From IMG/VR virus record IMGVR_UViG_3300044970_002245, positions 1 to 39,944 of that record: a DNA stretch of 39,944 bases; one strand, written 5' to 3'. The translations under genes and the position numbers were made by a program. Below, one piece after another: positions 36,006 through 39,944 of the stretch. How positions within the stretch are numbered: the first letter of the stretch is position 1; each line of letters begins with the position of its first letter. The notes beneath the pieces were generated by a model. It saw nothing but the letters and a program-made list of their open reading frames with translations, was not told the DNA's origin and ran no database searches. This stretch comes from a virus (lineage: Duplodnaviria > Caudoviricetes).

Positions 36006-36100
36006 ATGGGGCAACCCGTCCGAGGAAGGAAGAATTGGGCTTTCGGTCTTGCAAAACCTAGCCCCATGTTGTTGGTATACTATATAGGTAGAAAAGTCAA
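36006..36100 (-). promoter_or_regulatory. Initiator promoter and structured 5' leader
   Basis: TTGACT-17-TACCAA; ATGGGGC/GCCCCAT stem enclosing two hairpins. Confidence 0.55.
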
Positions 36101-36140: not shown

Positions 36141-36196
36141 GTTATTTCCATTTTGGAAATAGTTGACAAAAAAGGAAGTCTGTTGTACGTTGACAG

Positions 36197-36275
36197 TTGA
36201 CACGTTTGATTGTCAGTGGGACAGGTTCTTTGATCCCGTTTAAGGCCGCTTGCTCTAACAAGTGGCCTTTATAGT
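36197..36275 (+). ncRNA. Candidate three-hairpin small RNA
   Basis: Promoter TTGACA-17-TACGTT (36163-36191), no ORF, ends in an 11-bp hairpin. Confidence 0.5.
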
Positions 36276-37183: not shown

Positions 37184-37447
37184 ATGCTACATAGACTTAA
37201 TGATACCTGTATCCTTAAAAAAAGTGATTGTGGTGAAATTTTGTTGATTCTTGCCAAAAATGGATACGCTGATCTTGCTAACGCGGTTAATAATGCTGGC
37301 TGGGAATCATGGGATGGCTGGGTAGCTGTTCCTTATGAGGCCAGTAAAAAACAACTTAGGGGGAATACAAACCACCCTATATCGTTAGGTCGCTGGCAAT
37401 CTATTCTTGCATTAAGCCCTGAAAATCCACCAACAGAAAGCATGTGA
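37184..37447 (+). CDS. Hypothetical protein
   Basis: ATG 37184 in the 37136..37447 frame. Confidence 0.6.
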   Translation: MLHRLNDTCILKKSDCGEILLILAKNGYADLANAVNNAGWESWDGWVAVPYEASKKQLRGNTNHPISLGRWQSILALSPENPPTESM

Positions 37448-37683
37448 TTATGATTTTATCATACTATTACACAGGGATTCACAAAGATGAATTGCCAACC
37501 TTTGAAAAGAAGGCAAAGAAACTACAGGCTGATTATAAATCGTTCGTGGTCGGCGGTATCGAAAGAACAATGCGGGTTCATTTCACGGGTGATGATTTAA
37601 CCGAGTGTGAAAAAAAGGCATCTGTTTTTCGTAAAGTTTATGCAAACAAAAAGGAGATTGGTCCATGGTCAAAAGAACTTTAA
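37444..37683 (+). CDS. Hypothetical protein
   Basis: Overlap-coupled ORF. Confidence 0.55.
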   Translation: MIMILSYYYTGIHKDELPTFEKKAKKLQADYKSFVVGGIERTMRVHFTGDDLTECEKKASVFRKVYANKKEIGPWSKEL

Positions 37684-37922
37684 TTTTAATCGCTTTGCTT
37701 TCAGGCGATGCTATGGCGCAATATTATAGCCCACAAACCTACATGCCATTAAACTGTAGTACAATGTGGACGGCAGAATGTGAGTCGGCTGCAAGAACAT
37801 CTGAATTGCAAAATCAACAAGAAATGCTTGATTTCATGAGAAAACAAGAAGCCAACCGAAGCCTTGAGCAGATCAATGAAAGTAGCGATAGGTTTTGGAG
37901 AGAATTTCGTTTGCCAAAATAA
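37665..37922 (+). CDS. Secreted protein (signal peptide)
   Basis: MVKRTLILIALLSGDAMA|Q with A-x-A site; AAGGAG RBS. Confidence 0.65.
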   Translation: MVKRTLILIALLSGDAMAQYYSPQTYMPLNCSTMWTAECESAARTSELQNQQEMLDFMRKQEANRSLEQINESSDRFWREFRLPK

Positions 37923-37931
37923 TCACAGAAT

Positions 37932-37987
37932 AAAACGACACCGTGTCTGGCCAAGCAAAATCCTACAAAACGACGTAGTCACGGTGC
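37932..37987 (-). ncRNA. Candidate small RNA
   Basis: Promoter TTGTGT-17-TAGTAT (38022-37994); GCACCGTG/CACGGTGT stem followed by CGTTTT. Confidence 0.4.
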
Positions 37988-38013
37988 TTGCTTATACTAT
38001 ACAAAAAAACCCA

Positions 38014-38057
38014 TTGACACAAGTCCTTTTGTTGTGTAGTGTATACAAACAACAACA
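38014..38057 (+). promoter_or_regulatory. sigma70-like promoter with shared operator-like motif
   Basis: TTGACA-17-TAGTGT; 28/30 match to 2306-2335. Confidence 0.7.
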
Positions 38058-38072
38058 AACAGGGAAACCCTT

Positions 38073-38471
38073 ATGGTATCATTAACAGATTTTAACAAGC
38101 CTTTTGAGTGCACAGACGTGTACGAAAGAGAAAAATACACACTGGAACACGTAGAACTTTCTGATGATGAAGATTTGATCGGAAAAGATGTTACTTTAAT
38201 GGCGTATGTTTTCTATCCGAACAGGCTTTCTAAAAGTCTTTTTCGTATCCGCTCAAAAGAGCAAGAGGGCACAGTAAATTTGGGCGCGTTAGAGTTTCTT
38301 TTGACTTCTGATGAATATAAAGATTTTTTAGGTGGATTGCTGGATGTTTGCAGTGATTTTTCTGTAGAAGAGCCAAACAAATGGCGCACAAACATCAAAT
38401 ATGTTTGGTCCACAGAGGAAATTGAAAAAACTGACGGGCTTCTCTATGACCCAGAATACAAAACCCTGTAA
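38073..38471 (+). CDS. Hypothetical acidic protein
   Basis: 132 aa, AGGGA RBS. Confidence 0.7.
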   Translation: MVSLTDFNKPFECTDVYEREKYTLEHVELSDDEDLIGKDVTLMAYVFYPNRLSKSLFRIRSKEQEGTVNLGALEFLLTSDEYKDFLGGLLDVCSDFSVEEPNKWRTNIKYVWSTEEIEKTDGLLYDPEYKTL

Positions 38472-38511
38472 ACCCCTTGACAATGGTTGGTGTGTGTGTC
38501 ATAACAACACC

Positions 38512-38590
38512 AACGCTCATAAGTGGTTTTGGTTTCTTGCCACTTAAAACTGGACGGGGTTTCTTTGTTGATGGGAAGCCCCGTTTTTTT
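38512..38590 (+). ncRNA. Candidate two-hairpin small RNA or attenuator leader
   Basis: Promoter TTGACA-17-CATAAC (38477-38505); TAAGTGG/CCACTTA hairpin; terminator ACGGGGTTTC...GAAGCCCCGT+T-tract. Confidence 0.55.
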
Positions 38591-38623: not shown

Positions 38624-38839
38624 ATGGTGCAGTTTTTAGGCATAGAAAGCGAAAACGGCAAGGTCGACATTAAGGTCCTTTGGTATGACCAAAGGTGTTC
38701 TTTTACTGGAGGAAACAGCCGTATTTTTGAGACAAAGGGAGAAGATTTAAAAAAAGATTTGTTTTATATGGAAGCCGTACTTGGGATGGAGCGCATAAAA
38801 TTAGAACGAAAAGAAGCAGCGGAAAAACAAAACAATTAA
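38624..38839 (+). CDS. Hypothetical protein
   Basis: AAGGAG RBS before MVQFLG; upstream part of the track ORF is promoter/terminator sequence. Confidence 0.65.
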   Translation: MVQFLGIESENGKVDIKVLWYDQRCSFTGGNSRIFETKGEDLKKDLFYMEAVLGMERIKLERKEAAEKQNN

Positions 38840-38843
38840 GCAT

Positions 38844-38919
38844 GGTCCATTAGTGTACGGGTTAGCACACTGCGCTCATAACGCATGAGGATAGGGTTCA
38901 ACTCCCTGATGGACTACCA
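38844..38919 (+). tRNA. tRNA(CAT), repeat copy
   Basis: Identical to 27-102. Confidence 0.92.
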
Positions 38920-38931
38920 ACAAGCAAAGGA

Positions 38932-39375
38932 ATGATTATGACTAAACTATACCCTATAGGCACACAGCTTATAACGCATCGGCTCAGTCAAGCGGCACTT
39001 TTTGTTGATGTGTTTCCAGAATCTAGCACAGAATTTGCCTCATTTTTTGATCCAGATGATGAGGTGGGTGTAAGGCATCTTGTTGGGTTTTGTTTAAGTG
39101 CGGATGAGTGGCGCGTCATGGTTACCGAAGATAATCAAAAATGGCTAAGTCCTGTACCGATGGTAGGGGATTTGGTGGATGTTGATAAGAGATATTCAGT
39201 ACCTACAATTATATATGTTTCTAAGTATGATGTTGGATTATTAGACAACCCTAGTGCAGTCGTTAAACGCATCATTGAACGCACCTACCCCAACGGACAA
39301 CGCGCACCGTTGATTGAGTGGGACGAAGTGATCCTGCCTACTGGTCAAACACCAAACACCCACCCTGCTCCCTAA
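38932..39375 (+). CDS. Hypothetical protein, repeat copy of 117..560
   Basis: Identical translation. Confidence 0.7.
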   Translation: MIMTKLYPIGTQLITHRLSQAALFVDVFPESSTEFASFFDPDDEVGVRHLVGFCLSADEWRVMVTEDNQKWLSPVPMVGDLVDVDKRYSVPTIIYVSKYDVGLLDNPSAVVKRIIERTYPNGQRAPLIEWDEVILPTGQTPNTHPAP

Positions 39376-39595
39376 CCCTATCCAGCAGATCGTCAATCTC
39401 TTGCCTAATGCTTTCTAGGCAATGCACAGATGCGTTAATGTGGTAATCGTCAACCGTGTTGGCATGGAAACGCGCAACACGGCATAAACACTCTATCGTC
39501 TTCAGGTGGTTGTTTTTCAGGATTATGTCCTGAACGTTTTTTAAAGGCTCTTGCTTTTTCTTTTTATACTCAAAAAGATCAATGACCTTCCTCAT
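39338..39595 (-). CDS. Hypothetical protein, repeat copy of 523..780
   Basis: Identical translation. Confidence 0.6.
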   Translation of the reverse strand: MRKVIDLFEYKKKKQEPLKNVQDIILKNNHLKTIECLCRVARFHANTVDDYHINASVHCLESIRQEIDDLLDRVREQGGCLVFDQ

Positions 39596-39857
39596 ACTGA
39601 ATCTTGCCCTCAAAGTATGCTTTTTTAATCTTCTCCGGCACGATCTCAAGTTCTCTAGCCACATCATCGAAATTTAAATCCAATACTTTACAAAGGCAAC
39701 GTAAAAATGCTTCGTCCTGACTTTTTGTGCGCCGGTCCTCGATAAAAAGAATCTTATGACCCGATCCTGAAAAACCGTAATTTTTCATCAAATCAAGAAC
39801 ATGACCTCTTGACCAACCCAGCGATTCCCTGCGACTTCTTAACAACGTTTTGTGCAT
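39579..39857 (-). CDS. XRE HTH regulator, variant allele (D26N)
   Basis: Repeat copy of 764..1042 with 10 nucleotide changes. Confidence 0.8.
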   Translation of the reverse strand: MHKTLLRSRRESLGWSRGHVLDLMKNYGFSGSGHKILFIEDRRTKSQDEAFLRCLCKVLDLNFDDVARELEIVPEKIKKAYFEGKIQYEEGH

Positions 39858-39944
39858 AACATCCTTTTTCTTCTTGACTTAGTCTTTGTCTATTTGGTAT
39901 GTATATCACACACACACAAAAAAAGAAAGTGTTTTTATGTCTAC

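Follow-up and report, generated by a model that had tools for sequence, protein, structure and literature searches.

A putative small antisense RNA directed at the shared leader of early genes in a tailed phage

The stretch of DNA analysed here, referred to as the window, is the complete 39,944-nucleotide virus record IMGVR_UViG_3300044970_002245 (Duplodnaviria; Caudoviricetes). Positions 38512-38590 of its + strand probably encode a stand-alone, trans-acting antisense small RNA (sRNA) that represses the early cassette genes of the phage through the leader they share, and so ends the early burst of expression. A preliminary description of the sequence had already proposed a trans-acting sRNA at this site. 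The proposal gains support from the conservation of the unit as a stand-alone element, from early-specific pairing in relatives and from the loops of a diverged homologue, but its focus on the anti-restriction gene ardC did not hold, and gene 38073 is a weak target. What carries the case is the presence, within a single conserved unit, of two early-specific seeds in neighbouring loops; the pairing energy itself is not extreme.

The phage genome is complete, at about 38.8 kb, and the terminal repeats measure about 1.1 kb. Protein family searches of the window identified a head, portal and tail of the T7/BPP-1-like type; a replication initiator, a Sak4-like AAA protein, lysis genes and a tRNA-Met are encoded as well. 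Terminase relatives at 36-65% identity have no other gene in common with the window, and six of them, scanned with a covariance model of the sRNA, gave no match. The only hint of a host comes from the relative G001, which encodes a GapR-like DNA-binding protein (L071 82-342, - strand; Pfam E 2.7e-12), a domain that points to Alphaproteobacteria. Between the two end copies of the record (1-1129 and 38818-39944) there are some substitutions and, in the ribosome-binding site (RBS) of the gene that follows the tRNA, a 2-nt difference; the record may therefore be a composite of two strain variants.

The predicted promoter of the sRNA (38477-38505, + strand) is of the sigma70 type, with a -35 hexamer TTGACA at 38477-38482, a 17-nt spacer and a -10 hexamer CATAAC at 38500-38505. 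A start placed 7 nt after the -10 element gives an RNA of about 79 nt. Neither hexamer varies among the 20 contigs, in contrast to four positions of the spacer. The consensus scan did not list this promoter, whose -10 element lacks the -7T. This base is absent from most alphaproteobacterial sigma70 promoters (PMC8407463). In G006, a similar TG-rich promoter stands upstream of an ordinary gene. An inverted repeat at 38486-38513 overlaps the -10 element and the start of the sRNA, and similar repeats occur at 38027-38055, 2306-2337 and 39894-39920; the one at the sRNA may serve as an operator or, in RNA reading through from gene 38073, form a hairpin.

For 38511-38590 the + strand gives a two-hairpin fold of -29.2 kcal/mol (z -4.06), a value attained by none of 200 shuffles; the - strand folds more weakly (-20.0 kcal/mol). 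Hairpin 1 (38520-38546, + strand) exposes an open loop at 38528-38538 (UUUGGUUUCUU), which is seed 1. It costs 0.2 kcal/mol to open and is complementary to AGGAAACCAA(G/A), that is, to the Shine-Dalgarno (SD) sequence and spacer of the targets. The loop is predicted to pair between positions -13 and -3 relative to the start codon, and the pairing can be extended into the stem, up to the AU of AUG. Hairpin 2 (38552-38590, + strand; fold z -5.26) is a predicted intrinsic terminator with a U7 tail, which the terminator scan found. Seed 2 consists of the loop and the stem top of this hairpin (38564-38573, UUUGUUGAUG) and is complementary to CAUCAACAAA; a second copy of GGUUUCUU sits in the 5' arm. 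Opening costs 3.2 kcal/mol at 38564-38573 and 12.4 kcal/mol at 38557-38569. The search of 38477-38590 against Rfam gave no family at the gathering score and none at E up to 10. A small - strand ORF with a leader-like AAGAAA..ATG was rejected because its start is not conserved, position 38519 being C in 11 of the 20 contigs.

Sequences of such phages also occur in lake metatranscriptomes, 24 of which contain 9-15% of the sampled words. In the four that were examined, a G003-like phage at 99% identity fills 28-30 of 30 bins. The contigs of these RNA libraries span the sRNA terminator; they carry no strand, ends or level, and DNA carry-over is possible.

The unit is conserved as a block. Besides the window, 24 loci were examined, and 19 of them (12 viral and 7 metagenomic contigs) hold the sRNA unit. 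Together with the window these are 20 contigs with 15 distinct unit sequences, some contigs being identical and possibly derived from the same phage. Identity over 38511-38590 is 95-100% in the 19 other contigs, and over the next 60 nt the ungapped identity falls to 22-57% in 14 of them. Of the remaining five loci, L063 stops short of the site, as L065 and L052 apparently also do, L059 covers the site without the unit, and L066 has a diverged copy. The unit is retained across three head modules (T7/BPP-1-like, SU10-like and P22-like), to which one early, replication and lysis module is joined in the genomes G001-G013. Both loops are invariant across the 15 distinct sequences. The covariation in relatives that had been suggested as a check was found at one stem-1 pair, a two-sided G-C to C-G change in L062, but this single event in one sequence is equalled by 35 of 500 shuffles. 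Two pattern scans of IMG/VR yielded no new homologue: a degenerate pattern gave 65 stretches, of which 12 were the known clade and the rest were unrelated or repetitive by folding, and a second gave 13, namely the 12 known ones and L168, a chance terminator. A covariance-model match in L079 (23 bits) was likewise rejected, as it covers the promoter only. L004 (10001-10091) carries a tandem duplication of a 66-nt part of the sRNA that runs from loop 1 through the terminator; the copies are joined at a TTG microhomology.

What lies downstream of the unit varies. Its 3' neighbour is a gene of the 38624 type in seven of the 20 contigs, another gene in seven, a directly convergent gene in five and the tRNA itself in one. 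These counts bear on the alternative named in the preliminary description, a cis-acting attenuator or leader of gene 38624 and the tRNA. In the window the unit does lie directly upstream of both, and if formation of the terminator is disallowed, pairing of hairpin 2 with the 38624 leader is possible (-29.7 vs -35.3 kcal/mol). This alternative fold requires sequence past the U-tract, however, and so cannot pre-empt termination. Moreover, gene 38624 is present in 3 and the tRNA in 4 of 14 records against 12 of 14 for the sRNA, and a convergent gene follows directly in the five contigs just mentioned and also in L066. Attenuation in cis is accordingly very unlikely. In five contigs, a leftward operon of helix-turn-helix (HTH) genes ends at the U-tract of the sRNA (L001 10033 onward; G003 10794), so that transcripts reading through its end would run antisense to the sRNA, with the potential to neutralise it.

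Targets were ranked over the 59 called genes of the window by a scripted sum of hybrid and opening energy. The gene-calling script mis-picked some starts, and rank 4 is an internal ATG of the terminase gene. The first rank, at a net -9.9 kcal/mol, is held by the leader, RBS and start of the ArdC-like gene (29565-29590, - strand). The gene itself, at 28782-29567, matches Pfam ArdcN (E 2.6e-8, above the cut-off) and an anti-restriction PHROG. Here 38523-38538 and 29581-29566 form a helix of 16 nt with three G:U pairs over the RBS and start, the strings and coordinates of which agree with the preliminary description. The pairing with a 2-nt bulge that it gave for the leaders of genes 29941 and 30144 is also present; the RBS of gene 30144 (30131-30146, + strand) is ranked third (-9.2 kcal/mol) and the rightward early mRNA leader of gene 29941 (29919-29943, + strand) fifth (-8.1 kcal/mol). 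The second rank (-9.7 kcal/mol) belongs to a predicted target not named before, the RBS of gene 30578 (30563-30580, + strand), whose product shows a weak HTH_3 match (Pfam E 2.5e-4, below the cut-off). A possible target at rank 7 (-6.8 kcal/mol) is the RBS of gene 2357 (2344-2359, + strand), which encodes an AAA_24/Sak4-like recombinase; in G008, the RBS of the Sak4-like recombinase gene scores -10.5.

Two further pairings of the preliminary description are present but have to be qualified. One joins 38558-38573 to 29919-29936 over 6+10 nt; its 6-bp half lies in the terminator stem, with an opening cost of 16.3 kcal/mol, and position 29919 is the 5' end of the rightward mRNA only approximately, as relatives have 4 nt more. 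The other joins 38557-38569 to the RBS of gene 38073 (38058-38070, + strand) over 13 nt with two G:U pairs. As a target this site is doubtful (rank 20 of 59, net -4.5 kcal/mol), because the seed lies within the terminator stem that costs 12.4 kcal/mol to open.

The best sites have in common a leader of the class CAACAAAGGAAACCAA(G/A)ACCAUG, which recurs upstream of numerous unrelated genes of the early cassettes. The early region of relatives is an array of cassettes, with the leader CAACA(C)AAAGGAAACCAA(G/A)(A)CCAUG repeated from gene to gene. The promoters of the array in relatives carry a TGCAA-N-TTGCA palindrome, and this promoter family occurs in 11 records. In the window, the predicted leftward early promoter (29626-29654, - strand) matches the consensus at 11 of 12 positions and has the palindrome in its spacer, and the predicted rightward one (29886-29914, + strand; 10 of 12 positions) belongs to the same family and forms a conserved island in relatives. 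In these early promoters the palindrome sits between -35 and -10, and there is another TGCAA upstream. The palindrome is likely an operator, and its regulator is perhaps the HTH-like protein of gene 30578. Twelve records cover the early region: five have ardC and divergent promoters; in six that have the sRNA the promoters are tandem and ardC is missing; G001, the twelfth, has neither ardC nor the sRNA. The preliminary description held that the sRNA is aimed at ardC and both divergent early operons. The ardC site does rank first, but ardC and the divergent layout are found in only 5 of the 12 records. As six relatives bear the sRNA without ardC, the target appears to be the repeated leader class, rather than ardC as such or the divergent layout.

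Specificity for this leader class is best seen in the relatives. Among start regions taken from relatives only, with early-region limits set by hand from promoter positions, -8 kcal/mol or lower was reached by 38 of 85 early regions against 10 of 273 others. These 38 early regions span 19 unrelated protein families; because the leaders of the relatives share ancestry, the counts do not amount to independent trials. Pairing by loop 2 alone is modestly enriched in early regions (25/85 vs 34/195). In a first shuffle test (500 dinucleotide shuffles, no accessibility term, two of 62 starts mis-set), the observed energy was reached by 2 shuffles for ardC, 0 for 29941, 12 for 30144 and 57 for 38073. 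The summed energy of these four named targets was reached by none of the 500, and 9 of them matched the value when the four best start regions of whatever gene were taken. A second test included accessibility and compared 20 early with 20 other regions from relatives in 90 shuffles. No shuffled RNA reached the gap between early and other regions, while nine of the 90 reached the absolute net early energy. Composition-matched random RNAs, a comparison proposed in the preliminary description, thus fail to reproduce the gap and the four-target sum but do reproduce the absolute early energy in a tenth of cases.

The single seeds behave similarly. With 30 early and 30 other regions, the early score of each 16-nt seed was reached by 3 and 6 of 1000 permutations, and the score on other regions by 621 and 120 of 1000; for the gap between early and other regions, the figures of the two seeds were 2 and 9 of 1000. 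Loop 1 alone ranks 43rd among 2860 permutations on early leaders, but also 84th of 2860 on others. Among the U/G-rich 16-mers of the genome, the seeds take only the 16th and 17th places, below windows that are antisense to leaders and windows in coding sequence; hairpin 1 as a whole is second of 19,216 windows of 30 nt against the three early leaders of the window.

The arrangement of the two loops fits one leader. On the rightward leader, loop 2 faces 29919-29928 and loop 1 faces 29929-29938; the sites are adjacent and in antiparallel order, so that both loops can bind with their stems closed. In 17 distinct first-gene leaders, hairpin 1 pairs over at least 10 bp in 15 and loop 2 over at least 8 bp in 12, both contacts being found in 10. 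When all early regions are counted, 15 of 85 show both contacts, compared with 6 of 195 other regions having AGGA. From this geometry we infer simultaneous binding of both loops to one leader.

The most distant copy of the unit lies in L066, a contig about 68% identical to the clade, where the covariance model found a diverged homologue at 34.9 bits. It has the same position, the TTGACA hexamer, the two hairpins and the terminator, but both loops are changed, loop 1 to AUUUCUCCUUUG and loop 2 to UUAUGGUG. On 373 start regions, the four best sites of the L066 RNA are all early and of the AAACAAAGGAG and CCACCAUG type (AGGAG type). The L066 RNA favours AGGAG leaders (mean -7.45 vs -5.28), whereas the window RNA favours AGGAAACC leaders (-10.24 vs -5.98). 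Its loop-2 seed is early-specific (2/1000), and its loop 1 is a generic anti-SD sequence (gap reached by 157/1000). A longer contig of the L066 lineage with its own early leaders was sought and not found. The comparison suggests that seeds and leaders covary between the lineages of the window and L066. The complete relative G001, a single lineage, lacks the sRNA and has mostly GGAGUAA or GGAGAA leaders. Only 2 of its 15 early starts reach -8 or lower, compared with 36-67% in the 11 other records, and neither a duplex scan against its own GGAGUAA leaders nor the covariance model (best 15.1 bits) gave a counterpart RNA.

A plainer reading would make the unit a mere terminator of the 37184-38471 operon, perhaps weakly bidirectional, with loops that match leaders through composition or as relics of inverted leader copies. 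Hairpin 2 is indeed a strong terminator, convergent genes end at the U-tract in five of 20 contigs, the promoter fails the consensus scan, the absolute energy is matched by nine of 90 shuffles, and the close relatives differ so little that conservation by itself is no proof of selection on the loops. A terminator leaves hairpin 1, its compensatory change, the invariant promoter hexamers and the early-specific gap unexplained, however, as it does L066, where both loops differ and still match early-type leaders. This reading is accordingly considered unlikely.

The c4 RNA of phages P1 and P7 is cut by RNase P from the operon of its own target. It carries looped stretches complementary to sequences around the RBS and blocks translation (Rfam C4, RF01695; PMC12197685, PMC8201110), and its specificity can differ between relatives (PMC12197685). 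The putative sRNA is like c4 in its looped complementary stretches, but it consists of two simple hairpins with an intrinsic terminator, and 38477-38590 gave no match to the C4 covariance model at the gathering score or at E up to 10. Whereas c4 is aimed at one antirepressor mRNA, the predicted targets here are many unrelated genes 8-9 kb away, and no antirepressor (ant) family was found among the 65 proteins of the window. The CI RNA of P4 is likewise a small phage RNA that pairs with two stretches of a transcript of its own phage. It arises by processing of the transcript under its control, in which it brings about premature termination through the flanking seqA and seqC (PMC4825925). The predicted targets of the sRNA, by contrast, are distant, the best of them 8-9 kb away, and overlap the SD sequence and AUG, and the genes downstream of it vary or are absent.

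Among host RNAs, RsaE/RoxS and RNAIII of Staphylococcus also have a duplicated SD-directed seed with one copy sequestered in a stem (PMC9217828), as GGUUUCUU is here. They are encoded on the host chromosome, have UCCCC seeds and share no sequence family link with the sRNA, the seed of which is suited to a phage-specific AGGAAACC signature and forms G:U pairs with it. Repression of phage genes through pairing, which is predicted here, is also exerted by OOP and aQ of lambda and by sar and sas of P22 (PMC12197685). Each of these is described as an antisense RNA and has a single target, whereas the sRNA has many predicted targets, which lie 8-9 kb away and would pair with it imperfectly. PreS of lambda and VpdS of VP882 are phage-encoded, trans-acting and directed at several targets, which is also predicted here, but they depend on Hfq and largely target host mRNAs. 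Other reports concern host-directed or uncharacterised phage RNAs (PMC10914365, PMC2864571). By this analogy, the sRNA would work like c4 of P1 or RsaE, yet it belongs to neither. It shows two features of trans-encoded sRNAs, namely a conserved structure with a conserved single-stranded seed (the loops being invariant and the architecture kept in L066) and seed complementarity to several mRNAs beyond chance, as judged by the gap (0/90) and less so by absolute energy (9/90).

PreS and VpdS point to a further alternative, in which the sRNA is genuine but acts mainly on host mRNAs or a protein, the match to phage leaders being secondary. Host targets are documented for phage sRNAs (bioRxiv 10.1101/2024.10.31.621285; PMC12197685), and loop 1 of L066 is a canonical anti-SD sequence. 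Both seeds, however, specifically match the phage's own early leader class, which makes this alternative very unlikely.

The same pairing could also serve another purpose. In a carrier or lysogenic state, or soon after a first infection, the RNA could silence the early genes of a resident or superinfecting phage, as in immunity of the c4 or CI kind. The leader is common to the clade, so the sRNA would act on relatives; L066 has different loops, as would be expected of a second immunity type; and HTH genes are present, as is an int-alpA-like structured RNA, described below. The heteroimmunity of P1 and P7 rests on the specificity of c4 (PMC12197685). Against this stands the absence of integrase and partition families, none of which was found among the 65 window proteins or among 102 of 128 further protein families of relatives, the other 26 being mostly short or doubtful ORFs. 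Likewise, searches of GTDB genomes with the capsid and an HTH alignment gave no prophage relative, and no host. Immunity as the main function is thus rather unlikely.

Under the preferred reading, repression of the early cassette genes during lytic growth, pairing would begin at AGGAAACCAA through the open loop 1 and, where the leader fits best, zip up as far as the AUG. On promoter-proximal leaders, a further contact would come from loop 2 immediately upstream, at the CAACAAA part. The 30S site would then be blocked, and translation of the early cassette genes would be repressed as a group. The sRNA is expected to accumulate after the early burst and to end it; this timing is suggested by its promoter, which resembles the middle-type promoters of gene 38073 and the recombinase gene and lacks the palindrome of the early promoters.

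The end of the early burst of host takeover and anti-defence is usually explained by proteins. The phage sRNAs described in a review and a preprint either hit one phage gene or act on host mRNAs (PMC12197685; bioRxiv 10.1101/2024.10.31.621285), and no sRNA aimed at a shared early-gene leader was found in the openly accessible literature on phage sRNAs and c4/CI. If true, one sRNA against a leader that precedes 19 or more exchangeable families of early genes would form a compact switch for a whole regulon. The constancy of the leader despite the turnover of the genes downstream would then be accounted for, and groups of phages that exclude one another on superinfection could be defined in this way. 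A more far-reaching proposal, offered tentatively, is that of a protein-free RNA address system. Any gene entering the array behind the standard leader would at once fall under one two-loop sRNA that recognises the leader all the way from the 5' part to the AUG, and lineages would re-code loops and leaders together, as in the window and L066 types, giving both early shut-off and RNA-defined exclusion groups.

Two other candidate structured RNAs lie near 36 kb, back to back. The one at 36163-36275 (+ strand) begins with TTGACA..TACGTT, followed by three hairpins (z -3.2). It is present by pattern in 5 of 14 records, shows stem-preserving changes in L083, and could represent a cluster of terminators belonging to the convergent operon. 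Pairing between the two RNAs, looked for at 36.0-36.3 kb in five records, gave no clear co-change. The second structured RNA, at 35991-36068 (- strand), has its own TTGACT promoter, leads the replication operon and is also found in G001. It matches Rfam int-alpA weakly (30.2 bits, cut-off 35.8; E 0.0014). A UUCUUCCUUCCUC stretch in it shows complementarity to the RBS region GAGGGAGAAGAGGAAGG downstream, and in L067 and L090 the two partners have changed together; by analogy, the RNA resembles a P4 CI-type or c4-type control of replication. Contig depth at 35991-36068, a poor measure, is 142 and 63 in two RNA libraries, compared with 5-19 nearby.
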